A DNA stretch of 64,000 nt, taken from sequence record PQ604604. One strand, given 5' to 3'. Origin of the DNA: Escherichia phage ECP_WGS_SA1. Each line of letters begins with the position of its first letter. The first letter of the stretch is position 1. This document shows positions 2,037 through 64,000 of the stretch, one piece after another. A program made the position numbers and the translations under genes. Under the pieces are notes generated by a model that saw only the letters and a program-made list of their open reading frames with translations, was not told the DNA's origin and did not search any database.

Positions 2037-2063
2037 AAAAAAATGGCCAGANNGNNTCTGGCC
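2037..2063 (-). terminator. Hairpin with T-run on minus strand (loop N-masked)
   Basis: GGCCAGA-loop-TCTGGCC preceded by A7 on plus strand. Confidence 0.3.
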
Positions 2064-2139
2064 AAAAGATCACCCTTTATCCACTACTAAGCTGGAATCA
2101 TAATTTTACTTGATATAGCTGTCGCAAGCAAACTATAAT

Positions 2140-8724: not shown

Positions 8725-8759
8725 TCGCCTGGCAATGGATTGCCGCAGGATTTTACGCG

Positions 8760-9035
8760 TATAATGACGTATCATCCGTATCAAGTAAGTAGTTGTTTTC
8801 AAAAGAATCTTACGGATGATACGGATGATACGCGTTGCCGCGATACTTTATAGGAATTCAAAAAAAATAAAATAAAATTATATATCTAATTTAATTTTAT
8901 TTTTTTATAAACTCTTATATATGAAAAGTATCCGTATCATCCGTATCATCCGTAGCACACCAGTGATAGCGCGGCTTATACACCGATACGGATAAAAATA
9001 CGCCTCATTTTATCCGTATCATCCGTATCACACTA
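8760..9035. repeat. Iteron-like repeat island (GATGATACG units in both orientations around AT-rich palindrome)
   Basis: CTTACGGATGATACGGATGATACGCG at 8809, inverted copies at 8768, 8929, 9011; AT-rich palindrome 8861-8905. Confidence 0.6.
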
Positions 9036-9087
9036 ATTAAGGCGCGGCTATATCGGTTGTTATACATATTCAAACCATAATTATTGT

Positions 9088-9116
9088 TTGCCTAAGTTTT
9101 TTTCATTAGATATAAT
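9088..9116 (+). promoter_or_regulatory. Sigma70-like promoter upstream of protease/scaffold-capsid genes
   Basis: TTGCCT - 17 nt - TATAAT, about 25 nt before RBS. Confidence 0.55.
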
Positions 9117-9145
9117 ACACAATACTTATTTGAGGGTGGATGCGA

Positions 9146-45759: not shown

Positions 45760-46599
45760 TTATTCCGCTTGATCACCGTCTTCGGCATCTTCGTTGGATT
45801 CAACATCGACAAACTCGATGTGACCCATCTCTTCCAGCTTGCTCAGGTAGGAGCGAACGGAAGCGCCAAACAGTTGATCTTTAACTTTTTCGCCCAGCTC
45901 ATCGATAGACTGCGCCACGCCAACTTCGCCTTCTTTGATCGCCGCCAGAACGCGTCCACGGGTGGAATGCTCTTGCGGCTGGCTCAGGCCATTGCCAGTG
46001 TAGATGAAGTGGGTTGCTTTTGCACGACGCTGACCGTTCGCCTTTTTAGCAGCCTTACGTTCTGCGATGGCTTTGCGACGTTCTTCAGCTTCTTTCTTAC
46101 GCTGTTCTTTCTGCTTTTCTGCAGCTTCTTTAGCCGCAATCTTAGCAGCTTCACGCTCTGCCTTGCGTTTCGCTTTAGCTTCTTCTTTAGCCTTCTCTTT
46201 TTCGGCCTTCGCTGCAGCACGGGCCTGATCACGCTCTGCTTTCTTAGCAGCAGCTTGTTCAGCTTTCAGGCGCTTGGCTTCTTCTTTAGCCTTTGCCTTT
46301 TCGATTTCTTTTGCTGCTTTAGCGGCTTCACGCTCTGCTTTCTTAGCAGCGGCCTTTTCTGCACGCTCTTTAGCTTTCTTAGCTGCTTCTTCAGCACGCT
46401 TCTGAGCCTTCTCATCAGCAGCCTGCTTGCGTTTCAGCGCAGCTTCTTCACGCTTGGCTTGTTTTTCCTGCTCACGCTTCTGGCGTTTTTCTTCGGCTTC
46501 TTTCTTTTTAGCCAGACGTTTTTCTTCAGCCACGCGACGACGTTCTGCTGCAGCTGCTTGTTTTTCTTCTTTAGATAATACTTTGATTGCTTCGGCCAT
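45760..46599 (-). CDS. Highly charged K/E/A/R-rich repeat protein with C-terminal globular domain
   Basis: About 190 aa of E/K/R/A low-complexity helix-like sequence then an 85-aa non-repetitive tail; AAGGA RBS. Confidence 0.55.
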   Translation of the reverse strand: MAEAIKVLSKEEKQAAAAERRRVAEEKRLAKKKEAEEKRQKREQEKQAKREEAALKRKQAADEKAQKRAEEAAKKAKERAEKAAAKKAEREAAKAAKEIEKAKAKEEAKRLKAEQAAAKKAERDQARAAAKAEKEKAKEEAKAKRKAEREAAKIAAKEAAEKQKEQRKKEAEERRKAIAERKAAKKANGQRRAKATHFIYTGNGLSQPQEHSTRGRVLAAIKEGEVGVAQSIDELGEKVKDQLFGASVRSYLSKLEEMGHIEFVDVESNEDAEDGDQAE

Positions 46600-46758
46600 G
46601 TTCACAGTCCTTAAATAAATTAGTTTATTTTATATTCCCCGTTTGGGATAACTTAATTATGCCTTCAGTCGCCGCCAGTAGCAACTAAAAACTCTGGCGG
46701 CAATGCCACTTTAATTAAACTGATTTTCAGTTTTATTTTTCGTAAATTTACGTCAACA

Positions 46759-48429: not shown

Positions 48430-49512
48430 ATGGCTAGTTTAAGAGAAGAAGCAAAAATAATCGAAGAGTTTTTGACGGAACTCCAAAGAGGCATTCCAGA
48501 AGATGAACGCGTCATGACCGTGTTTGCGCCTGAAGCAACGGTGCAGACCGACGAGCGCGGCAAAAAGATTAACAGCAGCTTCTGGCCTAAGCCTTGGAAG
48601 CTTGGCAAGCCGCTGATGCAACATCAGAACGGTTACGCCTGCATAAGTTCAATGCGTAAGTCTCCCAACCCAAAGACAGGCGAGATGCGATACTGGCGCA
48701 CGGAATCGGCCTTTGGTCATGGCATGGCGATGATGGTCGACGACATCGGTCACGGTAAAGGGTCTAAAGGCGATTTAGATTTGGAGTTCTTTTTCGAGCG
48801 TCTGAAGCCAACCGTCATCATTGAGACTTCGCCGAACAACCACCAGCTGTGGTATTTCTTTAAAGAACCAATTGACCATCTTATTCAGTTCAAAGCATTC
48901 CTTGGGTCTTTCGTAAACATGGTACTCAAGAAGGGCGGCGACAATACGATTAAAGACGTGACGCGCGTGGGCCGTGTTCCTGGGTGCATCAATAACAAGC
49001 GTGTGACTCACGACGGCCCTTATAAATATGTCGATGAGAACGGCGACCCGTTCCGCTGCCGACTTGTCCATGCAGACTATTCTTTGCGCTACACAATCGA
49101 AGAGATTTGCCAAGCCTTCGGTTTCCACGTCGTTATGCCGCAAAAGCGTGAAATTCAAATCGACGTTGACGAATACAAATATGACGCTGTTTGGTATAAG
49201 ATAGCCCAGCAAATCCTTGCGCGCAATAAGATGGGCGAAGGGTCCGACGGCGATGTTGTTGAAAATATGTCAGGTAAATGCCGCATCATCTGTCCTTGGG
49301 GTGAAGAGCACACCAACGGCGACCCATACGGCGCTTATTTTCGCGGCCCCATCCCTGGCGCTGAACATGAATTCGTTTTCGGTTGCGCTCACGACTGTCA
49401 CCGGAAAGGGGAAGGCAAGAAAGGATGGACCGCTTTTGTTGAAGCAGTAGTCATGCCTTATATTGAGAATCAACTTGATATGATAAATCGTCGCGCAGGT
49501 GGCATAAAATAG
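48430..49512 (+). CDS. DNA primase (primase-polymerase-like with zinc-binding region)
   Basis: VIIETSPNNHQLWYFF resembles prim-pol motif; Cys/His cluster CPWGEEH...CAHDCH; downstream P-loop helicase. Confidence 0.55.
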   Translation: MASLREEAKIIEEFLTELQRGIPEDERVMTVFAPEATVQTDERGKKINSSFWPKPWKLGKPLMQHQNGYACISSMRKSPNPKTGEMRYWRTESAFGHGMAMMVDDIGHGKGSKGDLDLEFFFERLKPTVIIETSPNNHQLWYFFKEPIDHLIQFKAFLGSFVNMVLKKGGDNTIKDVTRVGRVPGCINNKRVTHDGPYKYVDENGDPFRCRLVHADYSLRYTIEEICQAFGFHVVMPQKREIQIDVDEYKYDAVWYKIAQQILARNKMGEGSDGDVVENMSGKCRIICPWGEEHTNGDPYGAYFRGPIPGAEHEFVFGCAHDCHRKGEGKKGWTAFVEAVVMPYIENQLDMINRRAGGIK

Positions 49513-50820: not shown

Positions 50821-52491
50821 ATGTCAATTGAACATGACAATCTTCCAGAGGATACAGGTGATGAATTTGGTGCAATCTTTGACGAAATTCAAGACGCTGG
50901 TGTTTCAGAAGAAATGCAAGCGGCAGAGCAGCAAGGCACCAGAGCTAAAATCAGCCTACAGCACAAGGCTGTTGAGAAAGATGCAGAGCGCATGGAATGC
51001 TACGGTGAAGAAGACTTGGTTGAAAGAGCACGTTTGCTCGCCTCACTTCAGGTAATCAAGTTCCCTCATTATAAACCGACGAAAGATGATTTTGTTCTTC
51101 AGGCGGACCGGACGAGTGACATGAACCGTTATGCGGTTTTCGACGCGTTGTTTGATAAGGGAAGCGGCGTTGTTCCATTCCCTCACAAAGATACTTTTCG
51201 TGGGCGCTTAGTCGACCATCGCGGCGAAACATTCACCGACCGGACGTTGGAAGTCACAGAGATAGTTGCCGCTGTCGACGCAGCAGGACTGTCCAACCCA
51301 AATTCACGTCAGGTCGCTCAATCCTATAAGGAATGGGCCATGCGTTATCAGCGCGATGACCTGATGGACTTCTTCTACAAGAAGCTGCCTGAATGGGACG
51401 GTACTGCGCGCATTGAGAAATACCTTATCGAGCTATTCCGACCGTTCGATACAGAGTTAAACCGACAAATCGGTGTGTATTTTTGGCTATCGCTCTATAA
51501 CCGCCTGACCAACCCTGGCTGTCAAGCGCCAATCTCCATTGCGCTCATCGGCGGCCAGAACGCAGGGAAGAGTTATTTTAGTAAGCTGCTTTGCGAAGCT
51601 ATTATGAACGACCGCCACGCAACACCGATTCCGTTGAACTTGGCCGCGCAGAACTTCAACCCGTTCTTGCGAGCTATTACGGGTCGCTCAATTATCGCGA
51701 ACGTTGGCGAGATGACAGGCTTTAAAAAGGCCGACATCGAAAACATGAAAGCATTCCTGACTAAGACGGAAGATGACCTGGACTTCAAATTTGAAGACAC
51801 GCAGGTTAAACCACGCCAGTGGATTGCGATCATGGACGGCAACGAATACGCAGGCATGCAGCGTGACGATACGGGCAACCGTCGTGTGTATCCTATCTTT
51901 GTTGGCCAACTCGCCGACAAGGACGGGCAACCGAACTGGTCGAAAGACTTCCAAGCTGACCTTTCCACTTTGAAAGAAGATGTTTGGCAGTTGATGGCTG
52001 AGTGCGCTGCGTGGATGGAGAAGCACGGCGAAGCAGGTTACAATGCCTTTGTTGGTGAAACATCTCGTATGCTTACTGAGTTCAGTAAGAACGAAATGGA
52101 ACGCGCTCGCGGCGTTATCCGTGATGAGATGGTCGACAACGACCTTGTTGAAGTCATCATTACCGCGCCTTATGACCGACATCACAGCGGACGCTGGCAC
52201 ATCACCAGTGGTGCAATCGCTATGGGATTCAGAGCTAAGTGCGGCAAGTCGCCTTTCTCACGTACCCTTGCGCCGCACATGTCGAAGCTTGGATTTGAGC
52301 CTGCAACCTATCGCAACCAGCGTGGCTACTTTACGCCGCTGATTAAGAATGAAGCAGGGGAATACATTTCTGACTTGATGACTATCTTAGCGTATCTTAT
52401 CCGCGACGAGTCTGACCCTGAAGATATTGAATTCTTGAAGAAGGTTATTGAACGCAAACGTTCTTTAGGAAGAGATAAGGATGAATTCTGA
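50821..52491 (+). CDS. Primase-associated P-loop helicase (D5/P4/VirE-like)
   Basis: Walker A IGGQNAGKSY, Walker B-like region; CAGGAGGA RBS. Confidence 0.65.
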   Translation: MSIEHDNLPEDTGDEFGAIFDEIQDAGVSEEMQAAEQQGTRAKISLQHKAVEKDAERMECYGEEDLVERARLLASLQVIKFPHYKPTKDDFVLQADRTSDMNRYAVFDALFDKGSGVVPFPHKDTFRGRLVDHRGETFTDRTLEVTEIVAAVDAAGLSNPNSRQVAQSYKEWAMRYQRDDLMDFFYKKLPEWDGTARIEKYLIELFRPFDTELNRQIGVYFWLSLYNRLTNPGCQAPISIALIGGQNAGKSYFSKLLCEAIMNDRHATPIPLNLAAQNFNPFLRAITGRSIIANVGEMTGFKKADIENMKAFLTKTEDDLDFKFEDTQVKPRQWIAIMDGNEYAGMQRDDTGNRRVYPIFVGQLADKDGQPNWSKDFQADLSTLKEDVWQLMAECAAWMEKHGEAGYNAFVGETSRMLTEFSKNEMERARGVIRDEMVDNDLVEVIITAPYDRHHSGRWHITSGAIAMGFRAKCGKSPFSRTLAPHMSKLGFEPATYRNQRGYFTPLIKNEAGEYISDLMTILAYLIRDESDPEDIEFLKKVIERKRSLGRDKDEF

Positions 52492-53138
52492 TGAATAAAG
52501 CAATCAACATCGCTAAATTCTTTCAAAATCTCGGTGAACTGAACAAAGAGAGTGACGTTCACGGAGAAGAAATGAACCGGATGATTTCAACCGTGTTGCG
52601 TGGTTTTGGGTACGATAAGGACTCCATCACCTGTAAACGCACGAAGCTTGTCGATGAGACATACCTTTACTACGTTGAATTGCGCGTAGGCAAAGATTTG
52701 ATGATCATCGACCCTAAATTGGAAGGGGCGCATTGTTTTGGCGCTCACCCTCGTGCAAGTGAATTCAAGGGGCGCGGTCGCAACCGACTCCAGAAGCTTG
52801 ATGATGCAGGCGACCTGAACATCTCAATGTTCCTCAAAGAGTTCCTTGCGCTGCCGAAGGTCGCATCTTCAACGGGTCGTGATGACCTGTGCAAGATTGG
52901 ATTCAGAACTAAAGATTTGCGCAATGCGCTACGCAAGAAGGGATTTGTGCCTTCTTATGATAACGTCGCCGCGCTGATGGCTTCCATGGAGGAAGCTGAA
53001 GCAATGGATAAGGTGCGCGGATATTTCCTGAATACAGGCTACACAATGTATGAGTGGCACAACAAAGGATTGACGGTCGCCGACTTCATCTATTCATTAG
53101 AGCAGAAGTATGTACGCAATATGCAGGCCACAGGATAA
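52491..53138 (+). CDS. Hypothetical protein
   Basis: ORF 215 aa, coupled to helicase. Confidence 0.5.
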   Translation: MNKAINIAKFFQNLGELNKESDVHGEEMNRMISTVLRGFGYDKDSITCKRTKLVDETYLYYVELRVGKDLMIIDPKLEGAHCFGAHPRASEFKGRGRNRLQKLDDAGDLNISMFLKEFLALPKVASSTGRDDLCKIGFRTKDLRNALRKKGFVPSYDNVAALMASMEEAEAMDKVRGYFLNTGYTMYEWHNKGLTVADFIYSLEQKYVRNMQATG

Positions 53139-53177
53139 TTATCATCAAAATATTTGCTTTTCTGACGAGGTGATATT

Positions 53178-53402
53178 ATGATTAATTTAGACAGGATTGA
53201 GTTAGCACTTAGTACCTTAATCAAATATTACCAGTTTGCTTTTAAGGCAAGTTTGTTTGGCTTGTTCAATCCTCATCAAGCAGCAAAGGCGCGAAGCAAT
53301 GCCAACCGCCTGCGCTGCACTGGTATAGTCATCCACGACCGGATATTGACAGAGGGTAGATTCAGCCATGAATACACAAGGGAGAATAACAAAGCAACGT
53401 AG
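53178..53402 (+). CDS. Hypothetical protein
   Basis: GAGGTGA RBS. Confidence 0.4.
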   Translation: MINLDRIELALSTLIKYYQFAFKASLFGLFNPHQAAKARSNANRLRCTGIVIHDRILTEGRFSHEYTRENNKAT

Positions 53403-53573
53403 GGCTTTACAAGTCCTCATCTACTACCTGACACGCCTTTATCCAACGGCGCACGAGCAGAATCCATCAACGGGTCACCTGTTTAAGCGCCGTAACCTTT
53501 CGTTGAAAACATTCGCTTTAATCCAATACGACCGCTACCTGGACGGGCGCTACTGCGGCCCGAAGGACTCACT

Positions 53574-53852
53574 ATGATTACTACATACAAAGTATTCTTT
53601 GTCAAATGCACATCATCAATTGATGACCAGTTTACTGCTGGAAAGAATTATCCCGTGATTTCTGAGTCAAGGTTAGATATAATCTTGAACGATCATGAAA
53701 TCTATGAGCCGATGCCAGCAACTGCGTTTGATGTTATCGGTCACGTTCGGATTAAGACGAATGTTGAAACGATGCATGACCCGTTGTTCAAGAAACAAAT
53801 TAAGAATGCCATGCAAGACTTTTGCGCGGCTATGTTCAAATACTATAAGTGA
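53574..53852 (+). CDS. Hypothetical protein
   Basis: ORF. Confidence 0.4.
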   Translation: MITTYKVFFVKCTSSIDDQFTAGKNYPVISESRLDIILNDHEIYEPMPATAFDVIGHVRIKTNVETMHDPLFKKQIKNAMQDFCAAMFKYYK

Positions 53853-53859
53853 GTTGAAG

Positions 53860-54081
53860 ATGAGCAAGAAAACTCTTAAGGCTGGCGACCGTATCCGTTG
53901 GGTGTCGGGACAAAATATGCGCGCAGGCACCATCCTTGAGCTGGATCAATACCTTACTGATTCGCGCGGTCGCAATCATTACCGTGTTCGAATCGATACG
54001 GTAAAAGAAGATGACAAGTCACTTGTTGGTGAAGTGGTCATCGTTACTCCACGTCAAATTAAGGCGGCTTGTGAAGCATGA
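53860..54081 (+). CDS. Small hypothetical protein
   Basis: Internal start MSKKTLKAGD with GAAG-type RBS. Confidence 0.4.
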   Translation: MSKKTLKAGDRIRWVSGQNMRAGTILELDQYLTDSRGRNHYRVRIDTVKEDDKSLVGEVVIVTPRQIKAACEA

Positions 54082-54229
54082 ATAAATTTCAGTTCAACGA
54101 TAACAAGATAAGTAAAGCAGACGCAATCAAGCAGCTTCGCCGCGTACTTGAAGCCAGCGGCCATACGAAAGAGCGTGCACGCGTCCTAGCCAAAGAACAT
54201 TATAAACGTTTTGTGTCACAAATCAGAGG

Positions 54230-54583
54230 TTGACCATGGCTCATGTTAAAGACGAAGTTTTATACGGCGCAGAGATTAAGAAGCGNNNNNNNNNNNNNNN
54301 NNNNNNNNNNNNNNNNNNNNNNNNNNNNNNNNNNNNNNNNNNNNNNNNTGGCGTATCCGGCACGAAGGAGATGGGCGTGTTGGTGAAAGACATTCGCGTT
54401 GGGGATGTCATGGTCATCGACCGACAAGCGCGAGTCGTTATCCAGGTGCAACCGAACGATGATGAAGGGTGTGTCCTATTGAAGCTGAAGAAGCTTTCAT
54501 CCAGCCCAGCAAAGGCTATCATCAAGAAGGTCTGGCCCGAAGGATTACGCAAACTCATTCGTCGACCCGTGGAGAATGTGTGA
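54230..54583 (+). CDS. Hypothetical protein (partly N-masked)
   Basis: ORF. Confidence 0.35.
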   Translation: MTMAHVKDEVLYGAEIKKXXXXXXXXXXXXXXXXXXXXXXGVSGTKEMGVLVKDIRVGDVMVIDRQARVVIQVQPNDDEGCVLLKLKKLSSSPAKAIIKKVWPEGLRKLIRRPVENV

Positions 54584-54819
54584 TGGAAGATTATATTAAC
54601 GCCATGTATATTGCATTCTATGTCGTTCAACTTCCCAATGGCGCGGTATTTTATGGCGAGTACACCTTTGACGTTCAATATGACGTTTCAGAGCGTACAG
54701 TGTTAACAAGAGAGTTGATTGCGGACCTTAAGGACGACATCAAACGCGTCGCGCGGCAGCAGTTCAATTTGGATGACACAGTCATCGTTCGTATAACCGG
54801 AATAACAGAGGTGCAGTGA
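54583..54819 (+). CDS. Hypothetical protein
   Basis: TGATG overlap with upstream gene. Confidence 0.4.
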   Translation: MEDYINAMYIAFYVVQLPNGAVFYGEYTFDVQYDVSERTVLTRELIADLKDDIKRVARQQFNLDDTVIVRITGITEVQ

Positions 54820-55154
54820 TGACCCGTGATCAGATACTCGCCGCGCATGAACGTGNNNNNNNNNNNNNNNNNNNNNNNNNNNNNNNNNNNNNNNNNNNNN
54901 NNNNNNNNNNNNNNNNNNNNNNNNNNNNNNNNNNNNNNNNNNNNNNNNNNNNNNNNNNNNNNNNNNNNNNNNNNNNNNNNNNNNNNNNNNNNNNNNNNNN
55001 NNNNNNNNNNNNNNNNNNNNNNNNNNNNNNNNNNNNNNNNNNNNNNNNNNNNNNNNNNNTCTATCGATTCTCTCACCGGACGGGTGATACAAAGATAACA
55101 AGGACACGTGACCAGATAGAGATTGACCTACTCCACTATGTAAAATGAATATCA

Positions 55155-55186
55155 AAAAGGTGAGCTAAATGCTTGCCTTTTCTTTT
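55155..55186 (+). terminator. Intrinsic terminator (cassette copy 1)
   Basis: GGTGAGC-TAAAT-GCTTGCC (G-U pairs) then TTTTCTTTT. Confidence 0.5.
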
Positions 55187-55201
55187 ATCAATACTTATAC
55201 T
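55173..55201 (+). promoter_or_regulatory. Promoter overlapping terminator (cassette copy 1)
   Basis: TTGCCT (downstream terminator stem) - 17 nt - TATACT. Confidence 0.45.
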
Positions 55202-55233
55202 CTTTTCATCAATACTAACAAGCGAGGTGAATT

Positions 55234-55551
55234 ATGATTTACTTAGGCATCGACCAGGAACAAGACGAGCGGTTAGGAAGCGTGTTAAACGTAGAATTAA
55301 ACACAGCTGTACACGTCAAGCCTTGGCCAGAGGCTCATCCCGACGTAGTTGTACCCGTTGCGCCTTGGACGCGTTACGTTGCCATTGACGATGAAGGCCT
55401 TGTGCATTGTTACTCAGAAAAACCGACATACTTCGAAAAGTATCGCCAATGGCTTATGACTGGTTGGGCAAAGGTGCGCTGTTGCGGCGAAGTCGGTCTG
55501 GAAGGCTGGAGCTTCAAGGCTAGTGAATCGTGTGTCGAGGTGCAATTATGA
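55234..55551 (+). CDS. Hypothetical protein
   Basis: GAGGTGA RBS; first gene after terminator-promoter cassette. Confidence 0.5.
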   Translation: MIYLGIDQEQDERLGSVLNVELNTAVHVKPWPEAHPDVVVPVAPWTRYVAIDDEGLVHCYSEKPTYFEKYRQWLMTGWAKVRCCGEVGLEGWSFKASESCVEVQL

Positions 55552-55762
55552 ATGCCGCGCTGGGTAAGCTGTCTTTCAACAAGCGCAATGAGTTGCGCAT
55601 GGTGTCTCGTTTTCAANNNNNNNNNNNNNNNNNNNNNNNNNNNNNNNNNNNNNNNNNNNNNNNNNNNNNNNNNNNNNNNNNNNNNNNNNNNNNNNNNNNN
55701 NNNNNNNAACAATTACNANATGCTGCTTATAANCTGCAGCAATATGCTATGGAGTATGCAAA

Positions 55763-56047
55763 ATGAAGATGCAAAGATGTCCACATTGCTTGTCCACGAT
55801 GCGGCTTACTGCTGAAGAATATTTACATCACGTTAACGTTTGTGAGGCTAATCCTGAAAATTCGACGCGTTACTATTATCACTATCACGCAGAAGCGGAA
55901 GATGGATCAGGCGCAACAGGAATCGTTACCACGAAAGAAATGGTGATCACCAAAAAGGCGTATGAAAGTCTGCTTGATACAATAAAGGAAGTATCTGGAA
56001 AAGAAATAATCTGCATCAAATCTTTGTCTTTCTTACACGAGGTGTAA
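55763..56047 (+). CDS. Zinc-ribbon protein (paralog A)
   Basis: N-terminal RCPHC...HHVNVCEANP; paralog of next gene. Confidence 0.45.
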   Translation: MKMQRCPHCLSTMRLTAEEYLHHVNVCEANPENSTRYYYHYHAEAEDGSGATGIVTTKEMVITKKAYESLLDTIKEVSGKEIICIKSLSFLHEV

Positions 56048-56048
56048 A

Positions 56049-56432
56049 ATGAGAATGAAACGTTGTCCGTATTGCCACGATGTAATGCATCTTCCGCATG
56101 AAGAGTTCGTGCAGCACATGACTAATTGTGATAAGAATCCTAAGAGCGAAAGCCAGCTTGAAGAAAGAATGTTTCTGGTGTCATTCAANNNNNNNNNNNN
56201 NNNNNNNNNNNNNNNNNNNNNNNNNNNNNNNNNNNNNNNNNNNNNNNNNNCATTGAGAAGCGACATTGACTCAATGCAGCTTGCGGCCTGGATTAACGTT
56301 AAGGAAGGCATCACTCCGCACTTTATCGCGCGCATCCAGTCCCAGATTCTACAAATCAAGCGCGAATACAACCGTGACATCACTGAAGTGAAGGTTCTTT
56401 CCATAACGCCGATGAATAAGGAGTTACCGTGA
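56049..56432 (+). CDS. Zinc-ribbon protein (paralog B, partly N-masked)
   Basis: N-terminal RCPYC...QHMTNCDKNP. Confidence 0.45.
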   Translation: MRMKRCPYCHDVMHLPHEEFVQHMTNCDKNPKSESQLEERMFLVSFXXXXXXXXXXXXXXXXXXXXXXLRSDIDSMQLAAWINVKEGITPHFIARIQSQILQIKREYNRDITEVKVLSITPMNKELP

Positions 56433-56689
56433 ACAAGGGTCCGATGACTAAACTGGCCGTTGCCGCGCGGAAGCTTCGACAGGCCGTTAATGGGTCGCGG
56501 CCCGTGGTGTTAACACTCGACGACGCAAAGGCGCTGGTAGAGCTACTCGACGAGCACAACCGACGCAAGAATCTGGAGAACACATTACGCTGGCGCGTCA
56601 CTCCAGCCGGACGGGAGAGCGAGAAGAAAGCTTACTTGCGACGCAAACTAAGGTCAGTCGGCCTTCACGAAGAGGCGAAGAAGATTTGA
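56429..56689 (+). CDS. Hypothetical basic protein
   Basis: ORF followed by intrinsic terminator. Confidence 0.45.
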   Translation: MNKGPMTKLAVAARKLRQAVNGSRPVVLTLDDAKALVELLDEHNRRKNLENTLRWRVTPAGRESEKKAYLRRKLRSVGLHEEAKKI

Positions 56690-56693
56690 TTCA

Positions 56694-56725
56694 AAAAGGT
56701 GAGCTAAATGCTTGCCTTTTTATTT
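56694..56725 (+). terminator. Intrinsic terminator (cassette copy 2)
   Basis: Identical GGTGAGCTAAATGCTTGCC then TTTTTATTT. Confidence 0.5.
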
Positions 56726-56739
56726 GCCTGTATTATACT
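56712..56739 (+). promoter_or_regulatory. Promoter overlapping terminator (cassette copy 2)
   Basis: TTGCCT - 16 nt - TATACT; near-duplicate of 55173 cassette. Confidence 0.45.
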
Positions 56740-57550
56740 TGTTTCATCAAGCAAAGGAGAATGATTATGAGNNNNNNNNNNNNNNNNNNNNNNNNNNNNN
56801 NNNNNNNNNNNNNNNNNNNNNNNNNNNNNNNNNNNNNNNNNNNNNNNNNNNNNNNNNNNNNNNNNNNNNNNNNNNNNNNNNNNNNNNNNNNNNNNNNNNN
56901 NNNNNNNNNNNNNNNNNNNNNNNNNNNNNNNNNNNNNNNNNNNNNNNNNNNNNNNNNNNNNNNNNNNNNNNNNNNNNNNNNNNNNNNNNNNNNNNNNNNN
57001 NNNNNNNNNNNNNNNNNNNNNNNNNNNNNNNNNNNNNNNNNNNNNNNNNNNNNNNNNNNNNNNNNNNNNNNNNNNNNNNNNNNNNNNNNNNNNNNNNNNN
57101 NNNNNNNNNNNNNNNNNNNNNNNNNNNNNNNNNNNNNNNNNNNNNNNNNNNNNNNNNNNNNNNNNNNNNNNNNNNNNNNNNNNNNNNNNNNNNNNNNNNN
57201 NNNNNNNNNNNNNNNNNNNNNNNNNNNNNNNNNNNNNNNNNNNNNNNNNNNNNNNNNNNNNNNNNNNNNNNNNNNNNNNNNNNNNNNNNNNNNNNNNNNN
57301 NNNNNNNNNNNNNNNNNNNNNNNNNNNNNNNNNNNNNNNNNNNNNNNNNNNNNNNNNNNNNNNNNTTATGACATCAAATCTTAAAGCCCGTTTATTATTT
57401 ATCAAGCCGCATGTGCCGTATAAGATTAGCAAGCGCACCTGGCTTAACATTTACAACCGCAGCGGTGACCGTTGCTTGTACAAGGCAAAGCGACGCAAGA
57501 AGGTATATTNNNNNNNNNNNNNNNNNNNNNNNNNNNNNNNNNNNNNNNAA

Positions 57551-58054
57551 ATGAAAATCGAACAACTAGAAGCAGTACTGGAAATGGCTGTAAAGGCTGG
57601 CGCAATTAAAAGCTATCGCCGCGAGAAGTCAGACGATGATAAGGTGTTTTGTCGCAACTTCTATATCGTTGGCAACCTTAATGACCACTACACCATCGAG
57701 TGGTATATCAATATCATGACCCTTAAGTCGCGCACCATGGAGCTTTGGTGTGATGACATCTGCTTGTCTAACACCCATCCATCCTACGACGTTGCGTTGG
57801 CATTCTATTACGGAAGCCGTCAGCCTGTCGCCCACATAGGCGAGAAGCATGAGCATCTTAAGGCGCAACCAGAGGAATCAATGGAAGGCTGGATTGAATG
57901 GGCTGGCGGCAAGAATCCGGTGCCTGGTAAGAAGGTCATGCTGATGTGGAGGAATGAAGGGAAGTCGTCGTATTCGTCCAATTCAGAGGGATGGCTATGG
58001 CATCACAACGGAAGCGTTTATGACATCATCGCTTATCGCGTCGTGGAGGAATAA
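57551..58054 (+). CDS. Hypothetical protein with WxGGxNPVPG C-terminal motif
   Basis: Start just after an N-run; motif WAGGKNPVPGKKV shared with 58938..59369. Confidence 0.45.
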   Translation: MKIEQLEAVLEMAVKAGAIKSYRREKSDDDKVFCRNFYIVGNLNDHYTIEWYINIMTLKSRTMELWCDDICLSNTHPSYDVALAFYYGSRQPVAHIGEKHEHLKAQPEESMEGWIEWAGGKNPVPGKKVMLMWRNEGKSSYSSNSEGWLWHHNGSVYDIIAYRVVEE

Positions 58055-58395
58055 TGGAAGAGCAAGAAGGTCGTGAGCTAACGTTCGACGAGCAAATGAA
58101 AGAGCTTCAGCGCACATCGCCGCTGCGCGGTAAGGTTGTTGACATCGAGGCGAGTGAATCCAATCTCACCCAGTGGCGGCTTAAGTGCATCAGCACAAGC
58201 AAGGACATGTTAAGCTTCAAAGTCGGTCAGACTTATTTGCTTTATGAGGCAAAAGGACTTATTATTGATGGAAGGCAAATTGTCTTCACCGTCGTCAACG
58301 GTATGCGTTGGTTCGTGAAGCGTGATGTCGAGGGTCGTGACATGTTTGTCGCAGGCTTTCCAGAAACAAGATTCCAATTGGAGAAGGTCAAATGA
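58054..58395 (+). CDS. Hypothetical protein
   Basis: Coupled ORF. Confidence 0.45.
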   Translation: MEEQEGRELTFDEQMKELQRTSPLRGKVVDIEASESNLTQWRLKCISTSKDMLSFKVGQTYLLYEAKGLIIDGRQIVFTVVNGMRWFVKRDVEGRDMFVAGFPETRFQLEKVK

Positions 58396-58724
58396 AATTG
58401 AAATGGTATGTGGACCCTGAGCCAACAGGCCAATACAGGTCATTCCAACGTCGCGGCTGGCCGACTTGTTACAGCGGCAATCCCGATAAAGAAGACTGCG
58501 AGTTGCTTGCCGCTATCGTAAGCCTCGACCATCACGGCTATGAAGGCCACTACGCGAGAGCAACCAACCTTCGGCTCAAGGTGCGCATCCATTTCAAGGT
58601 CGCAGGCGAGGACCGCACCGGACTCTCCAAGGAAGAGTTCAGCAGCATCGCTGAAGCAAAGGCATGGCTCAAGGCTTTCTATAAGAACAACCCTAAATTC
58701 TATCCAACTAAGGATGCATTATGA
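58392..58724 (+). CDS. Hypothetical protein
   Basis: Coupled ORF. Confidence 0.45.
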   Translation: MKLKWYVDPEPTGQYRSFQRRGWPTCYSGNPDKEDCELLAAIVSLDHHGYEGHYARATNLRLKVRIHFKVAGEDRTGLSKEEFSSIAEAKAWLKAFYKNNPKFYPTKDAL

Positions 58725-58954
58725 CTGATAAACAATACGCAGTCGGGCAACGTGACATCGAGCAACTCGACGAGGGCGGCTATTATACGCGCCACATCTA
58801 TGCCATGACTCATGAAGGACTTTACAGCAAGTCAGACATCGCCGCTGAACTGGCTCACCGTGACTTGCAAATTGACATGTTGCGTCTTGCGCTTGAGAAA
58901 CAAACGCAAATCGCTATTGAAATTTTGGAGAAGTTAAATGATACAACGTTATGA
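58721..58954 (+). CDS. Hypothetical protein
   Basis: Coupled ORF. Confidence 0.4.
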   Translation: MTDKQYAVGQRDIEQLDEGGYYTRHIYAMTHEGLYSKSDIAAELAHRDLQIDMLRLALEKQTQIAIEILEKLNDTTL

Positions 58955-59369
58955 CCTGACATACGATGTGGCGACAGAAGATTTCGACATCACTCCTGTT
59001 CCAGAAAGTCACGAAGGACGTTTTGTTGCATATGAAGACTATGCCGCGCTGGAAGCGAAATATGGTGAAGCGCAACGCGAGTTGGTTGCATTACTCTCAC
59101 AGGTCCGTGATGCGTCGGCGCTCGTGAAGCAGTTGCATGACGTTGTTGCTACTATAGGCGTGGATGTTGATTCGCCGAAGGAGGAAGCGTGGACCGTGTG
59201 GCGTGGTGGCGAGAATCCGGTGCCTGGGGAGATGGTNNNNNNNNNNNNNNNNNNNNNNNNNNNNNNNNNNNNNNNNNNNNNNNNNNNNNNNNNNNNNNNN
59301 NNNNNNNNNNNNNNNNNNNNNNNNNNNNNNNNNNNNNNNNNNNNNNATCGGGTCGTTAAGGAGGGGTGA
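58938..59369 (+). CDS. Hypothetical protein with WxGGxNPVPG motif (partly N-masked)
   Basis: Motif WRGGENPVPGEM and RVV[EK]E C-terminus shared with 57551..58054. Confidence 0.4.
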   Translation: MIQRYDLTYDVATEDFDITPVPESHEGRFVAYEDYAALEAKYGEAQRELVALLSQVRDASALVKQLHDVVATIGVDVDSPKEEAWTVWRGGENPVPGEMXXXXXXXXXXXXXXXXXXXXXXXXXXXXXXXXXXXXXXRVVKEG

Positions 59370-59818
59370 TGGGTAAACGGCTTATCGCTGCTGGTTGGGC
59401 CATACCGAAGTGGGGCCATCGTGCGCATTACTTTGACGAAGGAGAAGTGCAAAGCCTTTGTGGTCGCGCAACGTATTTCGGTGATGAACGCGTCAGCGGC
59501 GATTATATCGATTCGCTTTTAGGCAAAGGTGATTGCAAGAAGTGCCAGAATATATTGAGAGATATTCTTACGCAAAAAGGATTGCTTGAGCTTGATGAAT
59601 CGGAAGAAGTAATTGAGCTTAAGCTGGAAGCCAATCACCTTATTAATATGTTCAAGAATTATTACTTAACTAATATGCGCTCAAAGATGCGTAAGGAAGT
59701 AATAGAAGAGGTACTCACTTACAATCCTTTAAGGATGAATAAAACTAAATTGAAGAAGTTTAATATAATGATAAGGAAGGAATTTAAAAGGCTTGGAGTG
59801 AAGAATTTTATATTTTAA
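59366..59818 (+). CDS. Hypothetical protein with Cys cluster
   Basis: ORF followed by strong intrinsic terminator. Confidence 0.45.
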   Translation: MMGKRLIAAGWAIPKWGHRAHYFDEGEVQSLCGRATYFGDERVSGDYIDSLLGKGDCKKCQNILRDILTQKGLLELDESEEVIELKLEANHLINMFKNYYLTNMRSKMRKEVIEEVLTYNPLRMNKTKLKKFNIMIRKEFKRLGVKNFIF

Positions 59819-59834
59819 TAGTGATTAATGTTAA

Positions 59835-59858
59835 GAGGGCCGATTGGCCCTTTTTGTT
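59835..59858 (+). terminator. Intrinsic terminator ending the plus-strand small-gene block
   Basis: AGGGCCGATTGGCCCT then TTTTTGTTTG. Confidence 0.7.
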
Positions 59859-59859
59859 T

Positions 59860-60080
59860 GNNNTTGTTNTGTGAGTCTTTATTATCGGATAAAGCGATTG
59901 ATTTGTGTAAATCTATTAGAGGATGGTGGGGTGTGAGTATTGTGACGTGATTTTTGTGTCTTGAATATGTGTGCGAATTTGGAAGAATATTGTACTGTGG
60001 TGTTGTGGGATTGGAGAGGGAATCACTAGGAATTGGAGCGTGTACCGTGGTGTGTGGGCCTGTAGGCTGCGCCGCCTCTG
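59860..60080 (+). other. G+T-rich, C-poor tract
   Basis: About 200 nt with very few C on plus strand, no ORF. Confidence 0.4.
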
Positions 60081-60224
60081 GGATTGCCGCTTGAAATTAA
60101 AAAGGAGATATAGTTAGCTGGCTAACCTTACGCATAGAATTTAAACGTATAATGACGTAAGATTTGGACCTATCCGTAGTTCACTCCACACACTTCTATG
60201 GTGCGCCGCGACTGGGTTCAGTGG

Positions 60225-60432
60225 TACATCTTACGGATGATACGGATGATACGCGTCGCCGCTATACTTTATACAACTTTGAAAAAAACAATTAACTCCA
60301 TTTTGAATTAATTTAAATTAATTTTTTTCTACATCCTCATACTTATACTAAACTTGTGTTTATACGTATTATCCGTAAGATATAAGTAAAAACAAAGACT
60401 TGCGGCAATACGGATGATACGTCATGATACGC
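60225..60432. repeat. Second iteron-like repeat island (same unit)
   Basis: About 50 bp near-identical to 8809-8860, plus extra copies at 60364 and 60408 flanking an AT-rich stretch. Confidence 0.6.
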
Positions 60433-60578
60433 TTCAACCAGCCAGCAGCGGCTAAGTCATTGATTTGCATAACAAGCGGCGAAAGGGATTGATTTCTTTT
60501 ATACGTATCAAACAGTACACCACGCATCACGGTCCGCTATTCATTTAGCACTATGATTTATGTACGTTTACAGCCAAT

Positions 60579-60607
60579 TTGAACATCAATCTGCACTTGA
60601 ATATAAT
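60579..60607 (+). promoter_or_regulatory. Sigma70-like promoter upstream of 60660 gene
   Basis: TTGAAC - 17 nt - TATAAT; ATTTGCACTAT motif copies lie in the leader. Confidence 0.5.
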
Positions 60608-60659
60608 GTTCATTCATTGTATAATTCACACTATTAATTTGCACTATGGGATTTGCACT

Positions 60660-61133
60660 ATGAGTCAAGATTATGTAGCAATGCCTGAAGACTTTGAAGA
60701 CCCGCGATTTGCAGAGCATAATCAGGCATTATTCGATGAGTTCATTGACCTTGTTATTCAGGGCCATGACATGCGCGCAGCTTTTGCACTAGTATTTGGC
60801 ATGGAGGTTGCGACCGATAACTACACTGGCCAGCGAATCCTGTGCACTCAGCGCAATCCGTACTACAAGATGCGCTACAAAAAGCGCATGGAAGAGATGC
60901 CATTGAAGGAGTTGTGGAGTGTAAAGAGTTCCATCCACAATTTAGTGAAGCTTGTGCGTGATCCAGAAGTCGCGGCTTCAGCCAAGCTTAATGCCATTCG
61001 TGAACTGAATATCATCTACGGCATCACGATGATTGATGAAAATGGCAATAGTAAAATGGGCCGTTCCATGGACGATTTCTACAAGGATTTTGGAGAGGCA
61101 GCCAAAGAGGGTGAGCAATTCTCCCGCCACTAG
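60660..61133 (+). CDS. DNA-binding protein, terminase small subunit-like candidate
   Basis: Segment MRAAFALVFGMEVATDNYTGQRILCTQRNP resembles the HTH region of small terminase families; consensus promoter upstream. Confidence 0.4.
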   Translation: MSQDYVAMPEDFEDPRFAEHNQALFDEFIDLVIQGHDMRAAFALVFGMEVATDNYTGQRILCTQRNPYYKMRYKKRMEEMPLKELWSVKSSIHNLVKLVRDPEVAASAKLNAIRELNIIYGITMIDENGNSKMGRSMDDFYKDFGEAAKEGEQFSRH

Positions 61134-61561
61134 CCAATTTGCACTATAAAACGGCCCTAGAACACATTTTCTCCACTTCTAGGGCCGTTGGTAATACGAC
61201 GGGGAAGGCTGCAACCATAAACGCGTTATAAAGTGTATTATTATAAGTCATCTTTTAGTCGCTTTACGTAACAATTTACGACCTTCCGCCGTCCAGTCGA
61301 ACGACTCCACCAGCAGATTTGCACTATAACCTAAGACGATGCGCCCCTTCTCGTTATCGACCCGCCAACAAGTCTCGAATAGCATTCGATTTGCACTATT
61401 AACTATCGCCGCAACGCGCGTTGGGTAAGCGCAATTTGCACTATGGTCGTAAAGGGATAAGGTGCGACCACTGCCGATGGACAACGTAGCGATGAGAATA
61501 AGCGTATTCATAAGCCACCAATTTGCACTATGAAAAGCGACCCCGAAGGGCCGCCATTCGA

Positions 61562-62188
61562 TTAGATAATCTGGAAGGTGTAGGACTTGTTGCCGAACTC
61601 GAAGTTCAAGCGCCCGGCTTCCTTAAGCTTCATGCGGAAGCGAATGTGTTTGCTATCCGGTAAGCCCAGCGCGGCGAACGCTACGCGGACCGATTTGAAC
61701 TCGCCTACACCCTCGACCATAACGGCGTTACGGGTGAGACGCTTTTGTGCCACTTCCTTGTTATCCCAACTTTTTGCAATACCTTCGCTATTAGAACGGC
61801 GATGGGAAGGAGTTCCATTTTGCACTACGCAATTTGCACTATCGTTTAGGCCGCTCTTAACGAAGGCTTCATACTCTTCGTCGGTCATCGCGTCGAGTTC
61901 TTCCTGAGTCGGCTCGGCCTTTTTAACGACCGCACGCGCCTTATGCGTTTTTACATCGCTGGACACTTCCTCGCGCGGCTTCGCGTCGGGGATGGGCAAT
62001 TCGTTGGACGGCTCATCGAGCGCGTTTAAGGACTCGATTAACGCGATGACGCGAGTCTCAGCGGTGCGACGGTCCACAAACTTCTTAATCGGTTTTGAGC
62101 CGGAGTTGGCATTATAGAATGCAACGAGGTCGGCGGTCTTAGTTGCGATAACGTCGCCGCTAGTAGAAAAGCGATTTAAGCTAACCAT
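61562..62188 (-). CDS. Hypothetical protein (early island)
   Basis: AGGAG RBS; atypical CpG-rich codon usage. Confidence 0.5.
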   Translation of the reverse strand: MVSLNRFSTSGDVIATKTADLVAFYNANSGSKPIKKFVDRRTAETRVIALIESLNALDEPSNELPIPDAKPREEVSSDVKTHKARAVVKKAEPTQEELDAMTDEEYEAFVKSGLNDSANCVVQNGTPSHRRSNSEGIAKSWDNKEVAQKRLTRNAVMVEGVGEFKSVRVAFAALGLPDSKHIRFRMKLKEAGRLNFEFGNKSYTFQII

Positions 62189-62268
62189 AATAAACTCCTA
62201 TTTGTTAGGGCGCTAGGCGCGAAAGAATTTTATTAAAGCGCCGCGCACGACGCTCTAAAAATCCTCTC

Positions 62269-62583
62269 TTACTCTTCGTCGTCTTCGATTAATTCGAAGG
62301 CGAAGGCATAAGCTTTGCTATCGTAATTAACTAAAACGGCGAGTTCGAACTCGTTAATAAACGCCGTTTTACCGCATAAATTTAATTCCGCATCGACTTC
62401 GAAGAATCCGTTTTCGTCGCGCTCTAAGCGAGAAGCAGCGAGTTGCTCGATTACCGTCGCGTCGTTAATTTCTTCGCCTAAGCGAACGCCGGAGAATTTC
62501 GCGAGAATTTCGCCGTAAGTAAGCGTAACACCCTGGACTTCGGCGGTTGCGTTTTCGAGGGTGAAGCGGGTAACGATAGCCAT
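62269..62583 (-). CDS. Small strongly acidic protein (paralog family, early island)
   Basis: AGGAG RBS; about 104 aa, strong net negative charge, C-terminal DSKAYAFAFELIEDDEE. Confidence 0.5.
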   Translation of the reverse strand: MAIVTRFTLENATAEVQGVTLTYGEILAKFSGVRLGEEINDATVIEQLAASRLERDENGFFEVDAELNLCGKTAFINEFELAVLVNYDSKAYAFAFELIEDDEE

Positions 62584-62651
62584 AATAAGCTCCTAGTTGG
62601 GAGAGGCGTTAACGACCTATTCGTTAACTCATCCCGTCCCGATATGAGTAC

Positions 62652-62679
62652 ATTATAATATAGTGTAGAAAAAAGTAAA
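62652..62679 (-). promoter_or_regulatory. Early promoter copy (minus strand)
   Basis: Minus strand reads AGTGCTTTACT - 16 nt - TATAAT. Confidence 0.55.
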
Positions 62680-62713
62680 GCACTTTTTCGATAAAAATGC
62701 GATAAATTATTTT

Positions 62714-62741
62714 ATCTTTTTTCTTTACTTCTTCGTACACT
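62714..62741 (+). promoter_or_regulatory. Early promoter copy (plus strand)
   Basis: CTTTACTTCTTCGTACAC...TATACT, then GC hairpin and RBS. Confidence 0.5.
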
Positions 62742-62807
62742 CGCGTATACTTGTTTATATCGAGACGGGCGATGGCCCTTTCTTCTACTAGCATCGGGAG
62801 CTTTATT

Positions 62808-63110
62808 ATGACTACTTTAATCTCTTCCATCCTTACTTACGACGAAGACCGCTTAACCGTTCGCTCTCTTATCGCCGCCGTTAACGCGGAACTAGAATCT
62901 AGCGCCATCAAGGTCCGTGCCGTTGCCTTCGTCGGCCTTTCCTTCGACGATATTAAGTATGCAGAGTATAGCGCCATTCGCGTTGTTACTACCGACGATA
63001 ACGCCGTTACCCTTATCGAGACGGTTACGCCGCGCGGCGAAGCGTTAATTATCGTCGAGTATATCGACGTAGAAGGCGATAAAGCTTATAAATATTTTAT
63101 CGCAGAATAA
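62808..63110 (+). CDS. Small acidic protein (paralog family, early island)
   Basis: GGGAG RBS; C-terminal GDKAYKYFIAE similar to 62269..62583. Confidence 0.5.
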   Translation: MTTLISSILTYDEDRLTVRSLIAAVNAELESSAIKVRAVAFVGLSFDDIKYAEYSAIRVVTTDDNAVTLIETVTPRGEALIIVEYIDVEGDKAYKYFIAE

Positions 63111-63120
63111 CGAAAAGTGC

Positions 63121-63149
63121 TTTACTTCTTCGTACACTAAGACTATAAT
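63121..63149 (+). promoter_or_regulatory. Early promoter copy (plus strand)
   Basis: AGTGCTTTACT - 17 nt - TATAAT; near-identical to 62714 copy. Confidence 0.55.
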
Positions 63150-63216
63150 GTTTTATATCGAGAGGGGATGAGGTAGCGAATAGGTCGCTACCCTCCCGAC
63201 TAACTAGGAGAATATT

Positions 63217-63507
63217 ATGATTACTTTATCCGCTATCCGCTCCGCTCGCGTCGAAACTTCCGAAAACTCTAACGTATTTGGCGAAANNNNNNNNNNNNNN
63301 NNNNNNNNNNNNNNNNNNNNNNNNNNNNNNNNNNNNNNNNNNNNNNNNNNNNNNNNNNNNNNNNNNNNNNNNNNNNNNNNNNNNNNNNNNNNNNNNNNNN
63401 NNNNNNNNNNNNNNNNNNNNNNNNNNNNNNNNNNNNNNNNNNNNNNNNNNNNNNNNNNNNNNNNNNNNNNNNNNNNNNNNNNNNNNTTTAAAATCGTCTC
63501 CTTATAA
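63217..63507 (+). CDS. Small protein (mostly N-masked)
   Basis: AGGAG RBS, N-terminus MITLSAIRSARVE resembles 62808 gene; body masked. Confidence 0.35.
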   Translation: MITLSAIRSARVETSENSNVFGEXXXXXXXXXXXXXXXXXXXXXXXXXXXXXXXXXXXXXXXXXXXXXXXXXXXXXXXXXXXXXXXXXXXFKIVSL

Positions 63508-63539
63508 TACCCTTCCGTTACTAATAGGCCGCGCTTAGT

Positions 63540-64000
63540 CGCGGCTTTTCTTCGTCCCTATCTCGATGCGCTTCTCCGCGAAAACTCCTTTATCCTTCCC
63601 TTCGTCGTCGCATAATCTTCGTCGAGATGCGCCTTAGTTCGCATAACAGGTATTACGTTAAATGGAGAACATCGCGTAAGTCCTTGTTTTATATAGACAC
63701 CTATATCGGACCGTTAGGGAGGGTCGCGCAAGTCGTTGTTTTATAAAGGCGCAAAACTTTCCCTTCGTTCCGAACTAAAACGAGAAATATGCCGACCCTT
63801 CGCCCGAAAATAGTACGCATGCGAAATTACATGTATCTAGAATAATCCCCACCGATATTATCCTACACGCAATCATTAGCTTTCGAATCATTATGCTTCA
63901 TACTATTATGCGTCGAATCATTCGCTTTCGAATTGTAACGCTGAAAACTGTAACGGCGATTGATTATTGCGTTCGTGTGGTTTTTATGGCATGGGTCTTT
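63540..64000. repeat. Repeat-dense non-coding region at window edge
   Basis: No ORF of 60 aa or more in any frame; short direct-repeat families (TCGCGYAAGTCSTTGTTTTATA x2, GAATCATTNGCTTTCGAAT x2, CCCTTCG x4, TGTAACG x2). Confidence 0.5.

Follow-up and report, generated by a model that had tools for sequence, protein, structure and literature searches.

In phage SPP1 the packaging site pac consists of pacL, pacC and pacR, in phage P1 hexamer repeats flank the cut within pac, and for T4 gp16 the synapsis of two sites has been proposed. Short repeats also make up the replication origins of the Staphylococcus aureus pathogenicity islands (SaPIs), whose Rep proteins are self-loading initiator helicases with a C-terminal winged helix that reads short iterons; these origins lie just 3' of rep and contain 6-12 short iterons, with at least two opposed iterons on each side of an AT-rich centre (Qiao et al., PMC9371898). 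Here we describe a non-coding repeat element of Escherichia phage ECP_WGS_SA1 (record PQ604604) that has likenesses to both kinds of site, analysed in a stretch of 64,000 nucleotides, hereafter the window. Because the window ends (...GGGTCTTT) on the same final base as the records of WFH and Ro157lw, it represents the final 64 kb of a Wifcevirus (FEC19/WFH-like) genome, the full record of which spans ~71 kb with direct terminal repeats. We propose, with confidence only slightly better than even, that a Rep-type origin module is present twice in this genome, and that the copy next to the small terminase gene (terS) is also the packaging and left-end site.

The repeat itself is confirmed, as two loci (60130-60480 and 8749-9049) carry one near-symmetric module, in which opposed sets of 9-bp iterons (ACGGATGAT) are combined with an AT-rich core that has GCCGC boxes to its left and GCGGC boxes to its right. 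An initial annotation, made from the letters of the window, had claimed that the 60.2-kb locus shares sequence with one at 8.8 kb, and alignment bore this out: 60228-60273 and 8807-8852 have in common ATCTTACGGATGATACGGATGATACGCGT[C/T]GCCGC[T/G]ATACTTTATA, with 44 of 46 positions identical and an exact run of 29 nt. This match widens to 64 nt at 88% identity, the longest dispersed repeat in the window, and homology between the loci exceeds what had been listed, running from ~60137 to 60437 against 8749-9049 and including GGATTGCCGC, CGTATAATGACGTA and the right-hand iterons. Exact GATGATACG occurs nine times in the window, always within the two loci (~0.5 occurrences are expected for a random 9-mer, both strands counted), as do ten of the 11 exact copies of ACGGATGAT, the remaining one lying at 8399 inside the head-fibre gene.

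At the 60.2-kb copy, the left arm (60228-60273, plus strand) holds tandem ACGGATGAT at 60233 and 60242, the GC box CGTCGCCGC and then ATACTTTATA, this being the block shared with 8807-8852. Arms at 60225-60247 and 60362-60384 are arranged about a core of 70-95% AT (60264-60361), a candidate DNA-unwinding region that contains an 18-bp palindrome, AATTAATTTAAATTAATT (60306-60323). Further inverted and direct partial copies had been predicted around this AT-rich stretch, and were found at 60362-60384, which is 87% complementary to 60225-60247, and at 60408-60431. The inverted iteron ATACGTATTATCCGTAAGATATA of the right arm (60362-60384, minus strand) is invariant across Wifcevirus, and is followed by the first right GC box, CTTGCGGCAA (GCGGC at 60402), and the iterons ATACGGATGATACGTCATGATACG (60396-60437, plus), identified by repeat and motif comparison. 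This box, as (A/G)(A/C)CT(T/C)GCGGCA(A), also occurs in Pa193 and UViG_3300044683. Two more right GCGGC boxes, at 60448 and 60476 (60443-60482, plus), were recognised from strand segregation at terS loci. On the outer left, a degenerate iteron pair, GAATTTAAACGTATAATGACGTA (60137-60160, minus), has a homologue at 8749-8771 and an inverted partner at 60418-60437, and two GCCGC boxes at 60071 and 60086 (60063-60095, plus) include GGATTGCCGC, common to 8738-8746. We considered the conserved CGTATAATGACGTA as a -10 element, for which a degenerate iteron pair is the better reading, and a sigma-70 promoter scan returned nothing convincing within the iteron and AT-core part.

The 8.8-kb copy sits between the head-fibre gene with a 45-amino-acid (aa) open reading frame (ORF) and the head-maturation protease gene (9140-10558); position 8500 of the window is equivalent to 15,783 of WFH. 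Its outer cluster comprises three minus-strand iterons, CGTATAATGA, CGTATCATC and CGTATCAAG (8749-8787), preceded by GGATTGCCGC (GCCGC at 8742), and its left arm (8807-8852, plus) comprises two tandem iterons, the GC box CGTTGCCGC and ATACTTTATA, in the block shared with 60228-60273. The AT core (8853-8926, 90-100% AT) contains a 46-nt near-perfect palindrome (8861-8906), whose dyad at 8883/8884 is the axis of the iteron arms. The right arm (8927-8954, minus) carries three tandem inverted iterons that make a perfect 22-nt inverted repeat of 8811-8832, with the arms 100 nt apart, and beyond it repeat comparison located right GCGGC boxes at 8971 and 9044 together with iterons at 8986-9002 (plus) and 9010-9031 (minus), all within 8966-9049. 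At both copies, at least two opposed iterons therefore stand on each side of an AT-rich centre, which is the arrangement of a SaPI Rep-type origin.

A candidate initiator is encoded in the same genome. The gene at 50821-52491 (plus) specifies a VapE-like superfamily 3 (SF3) helicase (Pfam PF05272), a homologue of SaPI1 Rep that may bind the iterons. The only sequence homologue of its product in the PDB is SaPI1 Rep (7PDS, E=4e-11), and its AlphaFold model, with a predicted local distance difference test (pLDDT) score of 88, matches the same structure in Foldseek (E=2e-16, template modelling (TM) score 0.61, ~480 aligned columns); going by this predicted fold, the helicase is a full-length structural homologue of SaPI1 Rep. 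Its C-terminal residues 436-504 are predicted to fold as alpha-beta-alpha-alpha-beta-beta, a topology that fits a winged helix, the domain having been compared only as part of the whole protein. The window thus encodes an SF3 helicase with a C-terminal winged helix, the latter by predicted topology, as would be required of a cognate Rep. Between genera, helicase identity is 8-29% in the C-terminal domain and 50-68% in the core. A RepB-type DNA primase (48430-49512, plus; Pfam PF16793, E=1.9e-36) is the helicase's likely partner in the replication module.

Comparison with the SaPI origin and Rep (PDB 7PDS, 7OLA) yields likenesses in the opposed short iterons about an AT-rich centre, in the SF3/VapE-type initiator with its divergent C-terminal domain (of predicted winged-helix topology), in the lineage-specific iterons and in the position of the element just 3' of the helicase gene in five relatives. 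In Pa193, MyoSmar, Burkholderia phage Maja, the lineage L093 and UViG_3300044683 (where the ORF is partial), the element lies between the VapE-like gene and terS, and in the metagenomic lineage L091 one 225-aa gene separates the VapE-like gene from it. On this anatomy, and by analogy with the SaPIs, it is plausible that the element is a replication origin. There are also differences: a SaPI is a satellite, whereas the present genome is that of a 68-kb virulent myophage with two copies, one of which holds the virion DNA end, and where Rep binding and origin firing would have to be carried over by analogy. SaPI iterons are 5-6 bp long, unlike the 8-9 bp found here, which are accompanied by a conserved GCCGC/GCGGC box class, and the SaPI origin adjoins rep, whereas the Wifcevirus rep-like gene is 7.6 kb away.

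The two-copy layout is widely conserved. For region 59800-60700, matches came from 28 phage records, all of them Wifcevirus-type E. coli or Shigella myophages, with FEC19, WFH and ECML-117 ~97% identical to the window, and the 8.8-kb locus is present in all 28 at 94-99% identity; although non-coding, it is 97% identical among five aligned genomes drawn from both Wifcevirus subgroups. In Bas101, one 9-nt iteron unit fewer is present at 8810-8818, and copy number thus varies by a single repeat unit. A copy upstream of terS and another upstream of the head protease gene were found in at least four lineages in which both loci could be read, each with its own iterons (TACTTTTCGTTTTT in MyoSmar, GTAATTTGG in Pa193 and GATAGTTG in the metagenomic UViG_3300044683_000172), and in Pa193 exact GTAATTTGG is confined to the two loci. 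The protease-proximal module was observed in ~10 lineages, each with its own 8-mer. The terS-upstream and protease-upstream loci share 10-56 10-mers within a lineage, counting full-length pairs, versus 0-9 across lineages; the MTx terS locus, truncated at the contig start, was left out of the full-length pairs and scores 7-10. Every lineage has GCCGC to the left and GCGGC to the right of the AT core, as reflected in counts at the protease loci (GCCGC 22 left and 1 right, GCGGC 0 left and 21 right; p=2e-11) and at the terS loci (GCCGC 10 left and 0 right, GCGGC 0 left and 17 right; Fisher p=1e-7). Judged from these comparisons, the second copy is a conserved feature and not an accident.

The suggestion that the 60.2-kb locus might be a genome-end or packaging region was supported by the records of related phages. 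Those of WFH, WFC and Ro157lw, which contain both copies of the terminal repeat, all start at the base homologous to 60300, and the junction at their right-hand repeat copies reads ...AATTAACTCC|ATTTT. The Mansfield record, opened at the repeat boundary predicted by PhageTerm (PMC6753283), ends at window position 60299. Repeats of ~3.7 kb have been reported in WFC and WFH (Korf et al. 2019, PMC6563267), and we measured 3,701 bp in WFH, 3,784 bp in WFC and 3,533 bp in Ro157lw, with the same left boundary in all three; the right boundary is the same in WFH, Ro157lw and the window end, while that of WFC lies 81 nt further. These three records have the same sequence at both ends with precise boundaries, as in a direct terminal repeat, of which the window shows the right-hand copy only (60300-64000, plus), ending in ...GGGTCTTT at the repeat's right end.

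Record starts, repeat junctions and the Mansfield PhageTerm boundary together define an end-formation motif, TTAACTCC|ATTTT (60292-60304, plus), with the cut at 60299|60300. It is invariant in both Wifcevirus subgroups despite a left flank that is mosaic from 60228 leftward, and the exact 13-mer TTAACTCCATTTT is unique in the window, whereas the module of iterons, GC boxes and AT core occurs twice. The cut falls in the AT core, ~5 nt left of the iteron dyad centre (60304.5), placing a physical end within the site according to the related phages' records. It is also close to terS, at a distance of 360 bp here, 387 bp in MyoSmar and 602 bp in Pa193. The cut motif is exclusive to the terS-proximal copy, as are flanks rich in GT on the left and in CA on the right and, for WFH-type phages and MyoSmar, a specific 22-mer described below; lacking all of these, 8749-9049 is not a terminus, and none was reported at the second copy in the Mansfield, Ab27-29 or JG024 studies.

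The same site was recovered in other genera. In Serratia phage MyoSmar, the PhageTerm repeat (1-3559) ends 387 bp upstream of the terS homologue, and in Serratia phage MTx, which has 3,566-bp repeats, the first base of the record lies ~20 nt off, within the homologous core. Of 161 long reads of Pbunavirus JG024, 36 begin at 59,376 +/- 5, the putative pac site, where there is also a matching pac fragment and a coverage gradient with a dip just upstream of 59,376 (PMC10913387). When the two genomes are aligned, this position coincides to the base with the start of the linear Pa193 record (...CAGCGAAAAT|CGATTGC), in the core of the homologous element, and Essoh et al. described the PB1-like phages Ab27-29 as having just one fixed read end, located ~7.5 kb upstream of PB1 position 1. 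A single position of one conserved element is seen as the repeat boundary in E. coli and Serratia phages, as the putative pac site in JG024 and as the record start in Pa193.

We also weighed whether the copies might have arisen by inert duplication or as a miniature mobile element, and whether the terminus might be an assembly artefact at a dispersed repeat. Two assemblies do break in the repeat: the contig UViG_3300045988_152943 stops within an 8.8-kb-type copy, and the record of ECO71P1 begins with the inverted iteron (60365). We had examined such contig and record ends as a possible second terminus, for which breakage at a dispersed repeat is the better explanation, and contig ends within repeat copies should not be taken for physical termini. 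Against an artefact, the repeat boundaries are base-exact in the records of three laboratories, bounding a duplicated block of 3.5-3.8 kb, and PhageTerm provides independent support. Against a mobile element, synteny of the copies is kept across genera, and the two copies of a lineage match each other while differing from those of other lineages. Exactly two copies exist, at syntenic positions, unlike a miniature inverted-repeat transposable element, and no target-site duplications were noticed, although no systematic search for them was made. We regard explanations of this kind as very nearly negligible.

The gene downstream of the 60.2-kb copy (60660-61133, plus; 157 aa) had been labelled terminase-small-subunit-like, a label upheld by a match over residues 3-147 to the TerS of Pseudomonas phage E217 (PDB 7UXE, E=9e-33). 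Mansfield annotates its orthologue as TerS; Pfam returned no match for the protein, which falls in PHROG 4783, function unassigned. The gene for the large terminase is located ~9 kb into the genome, as a review (PMC9611059) also notes for E217.

This setting suggests an alternative in which the element is purely a packaging signal: both motif classes would be TerS sites, the second copy would be an auxiliary terminase-binding site, for example for two-site synapsis, and there would be no origin. The terminus does lie in the core, with repeats on both flanks and directly upstream of terS, and the N-terminal regions of TerS vary between lineages. The layout also resembles pac of SPP1 and P1, in which, as is generally known, the cut lies between repeated motifs beside the small terminase gene and packaging is one-way, and T4 offers a two-site precedent; in addition, the Pbunavirus homologue behaves as a pac site, as in headful phages. 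Unlike SPP1 and P1, the Wifcevirus and Serratia phages yield a precise direct terminal repeat of 3.5-3.8 kb and not a permuted genome, and they have a second, uncut copy. Moreover, a purely packaging role leaves unexplained both the SaPI Rep-origin anatomy and the position just 3' of the Rep-like gene in five relatives; it assigns the second copy, where no terminus is reported, no established function as a pac-like site, in spite of a position kept in ~10 lineages. A comparison of the iterons with the TerS N-terminus, like that with the Rep C-terminal domain, was confounded by phylogeny. We judge a purely packaging element possible, if unlikely.

Several observations also weigh against the combined origin and packaging site that we prefer. 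According to the same review (PMC9611059), E217 TerS did not bind DNA to any appreciable extent in vitro, which leaves recognition of the element's motifs by terminase hypothetical and also counts against a purely packaging signal. In Wifcevirus, ~7.6 kb of small genes lie between the Rep-like gene and the element, unlike in the SaPIs, and the second copy is far from rep. Cumulative GC skew follows gene and transcription orientation, with no origin signal, and that replication starts at either copy is something we infer. Iteron similarity does not track similarity of the Rep C-terminal domain beyond phylogeny. The distance from cut to dyad centre ranges from 5 to 56 nt by genus, and the geometry is thus only loosely conserved. 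Terminus positions were taken from other laboratories' records of related phages rather than from reads of the present genome, and Pbunavirus termini are disputed because some studies saw no peaks, among them that of Banzai, for which PhageTerm gave none.

The initial annotation had also placed the repeat in a non-coding region of ~840 bp with a strong terminator, a GT-rich tract and a consensus promoter, and each of these was located. The gap measures 841 bp (59819-60659). A stem-loop at 59835-59859 (plus), GGGCC-GATT-GGCCC followed by a T run, is the probable intrinsic terminator of the upstream early-gene cluster; it was read by eye and not reported by our own terminator scan, with N bases directly 3' of it, and WFH annotates a terminator just 3' of the homologous upstream gene. 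From ~59820 to 60020 (-480 to -280 from the cut), the sequence is 72% G+T and 7% C, and a GT-rich, C-poor tract, delimited by composition as 59860-60060, is found at the terS-proximal copy only, mirrored across the element by a CA-rich tract. This mirror (59820-60020 against 60380-60660) is present at the terS copy alone in four lineages, including MyoSmar, Pa193 and UViG_3300044683. The promoter TTGAAT-17-TATAAT was found at 60597-60625, and the scan gave a second sigma-70-like terS promoter, TTGAAC-17-TATAAT, the two together spanning 60579-60625 (plus).

A comparable promoter, TTGCCT-17-TATAAT (9088-9116, plus), precedes the head-maturation protease gene, and its -10 region, GATATAATACAC, is found in both Wifcevirus and MyoSmar, and its core, ATATAATACA, in Pa193 as well. 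The -10 region 5' of terS, (T)A(T/C)AATCGCG, is conserved in MyoSmar, UViG_3300044683, Maja, L093 and Pa193, and more weakly in L091 (TATAATCACA). With strong sigma-70-like promoters lying 3' of both copies and leading into terS and the protease gene, and with -10 regions conserved across genera, the iterons could be operator or activator sites through which a lineage-specific regulator times terS and the protease-to-major-capsid genes, the terminus being there by chance. The iterons, however, are placed 55-165 bp upstream of the -35 hexamers, on either side of the AT core rather than of the promoters, the exact 9-mer accompanies no other late operon, save for the copy at 8399 in the head-fibre gene, and such a role leaves the opposed GCCGC/GCGGC arrays and the central palindrome unexplained. 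Transcriptional control of this kind therefore seems highly unlikely to us.

Under the reading that we favour, in which an origin module is present twice and one copy doubles as packaging and end site, both loci would offer an origin-type platform for the Rep-like self-loading helicase, and the central AT-rich region could unwind. Terminase, or a coupled nicking step, would open the concatemer at TTAACTCC|ATTTT (60299|60300), packaging would run rightward through terS, and an end cut ~3.7 kb beyond the next copy of the site would leave the direct terminal repeat 60300-64000. The copy at 8749-9049 would be a second origin-type site that is not cut. The repeat with its symmetry and conservation, the terminus position, the identity of TerS and the Rep-like fold of the helicase are established by the data above, whereas the pairing of motifs with proteins, the firing of the origins, the cutting of the end and the duplication of the repeat are conditional parts of this scheme.

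The use of the same short iterons at two distant loci by one initiator, with one locus in a late-gene region, is familiar from P4 ori/crr and SPP1 oriL/oriR. The P4 alpha and SPP1 G38P initiators and the SaPI Rep-like protein considered here belong to different families, and we make no claim that the two copies are jointly needed in cis or that both fire. The concatemer junction of T7 (phiOL/phiOR) is also alike, in having precise terminal repeats, an origin-like element at the end and a repeat that is duplicated in concatemer processing, but its repeat is 160 bp long, it uses RNA-polymerase promoters rather than iterons, and its terminase has no homology to the present one at the sequence level tested.

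A bolder version of this scheme would make origin and packaging site one machine, the left end being created in the unwinding region, for example by a nick or a fork start. Origin firing would then re-replicate the 3.7 kb to the right, supplying the second copy of the terminal repeat for each packaged genome. We consider this coupling speculative and rather improbable.

Additional features surround the element. At its left edge, a 22-mer specific to the terS locus, TCTATGGTGCGCCGCGACTGGG (60195-60216, plus), is identical in MyoSmar, where it forms an inverted pair about the core (3655-3633 and 3373-3351 of the MyoSmar locus), and is not found in WFC-type Wifcevirus. We rejected it as a universal TerS box; restricted to WFH-type Wifcevirus and MyoSmar, it marks a mosaic joint at the element edge, and WFC-type similarity to the window falls sharply leftward of the conserved iterons at 60228. 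The 18-bp palindrome beside the left end was likewise rejected as a conserved snap-back primer, as it is not kept in WFC-type phages. Five copies of another repeat family, ATTTGCACTAT(G/A)A, are scattered around terS and the leftward genes within the terminal repeat (60534, 60641, 61127, 61307 and 61822, within 60534-61844), and in WFH AAATTTGCAGTACACT occurs twice just beyond the right end of the repeat (WFH positions 3725 and 3822); both may be operator sites.

At the other end of the terminal repeat, the right-end cut, GGGTCTTT|TGGTGCG, shows by eye no iteron and no motif in common with the left cut, and short direct repeats, two copies each of TCGAATCATT and AAGTCNTTGTTTTATA, lie nearby at 63560-63940. 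Inside the repeat, ORF 62751-63110 is flanked by a 27-nt inverted repeat (62661-62687 and 63113-63139, 89%) and by a 24-nt direct repeat (62746-62769 and 63144-63167). The small-ORF block at 52500-59800 has 31-37% GC in 2-kb windows sampled from 54-58 kb, and contains internal paralogous repeats at 55152/56691 (35 nt, 94%) and 57883/59183 (54 nt, 76%). Periodic 33- and 99-nt repeats at 46031-46395 lie in coding DNA on the minus strand, which suggests that ORF 45760-46605 encodes a repetitive protein. The source sequence contains N runs at 1-24, 70-328, 59861-59863, 59870 and 63400-63487, one of them directly after the terminator beside the 60.2-kb element.

Rfam covariance models gave no match at gathering score across the whole window, and no known structured RNA was met with. 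A contig scan with a TerS alignment returned 14 loci that added little diversity, a search with the VapE-like protein being much richer. In the literature searched, coverage of which is incomplete, we met no description of the element's architecture or of its second copy.

PB1-like phages (Pbunavirus, Wifcevirus and Myosmarvirus) are widely used therapy candidates, for which published accounts of the genome ends conflict. The element ties scattered end reports, from E. coli and Serratia phages, JG024 and Pa193, to one site, whose location matters for rebooting synthetic phage genomes, and it is a defined candidate DNA substrate for the structurally solved E217-type TerS. It also leads us to propose two candidate origins for a SaPI Rep-like helicase in a virulent myophage. 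If origin and end were coupled, this would bear on how long terminal repeats are made: were the two indeed one machine, it would provide a mechanism for duplicating long direct terminal repeats from concatemers, and it might account for how one site serves as a headful pac start in Pbunavirus but gives precise repeat ends in both Wifcevirus and Myosmarvirus.

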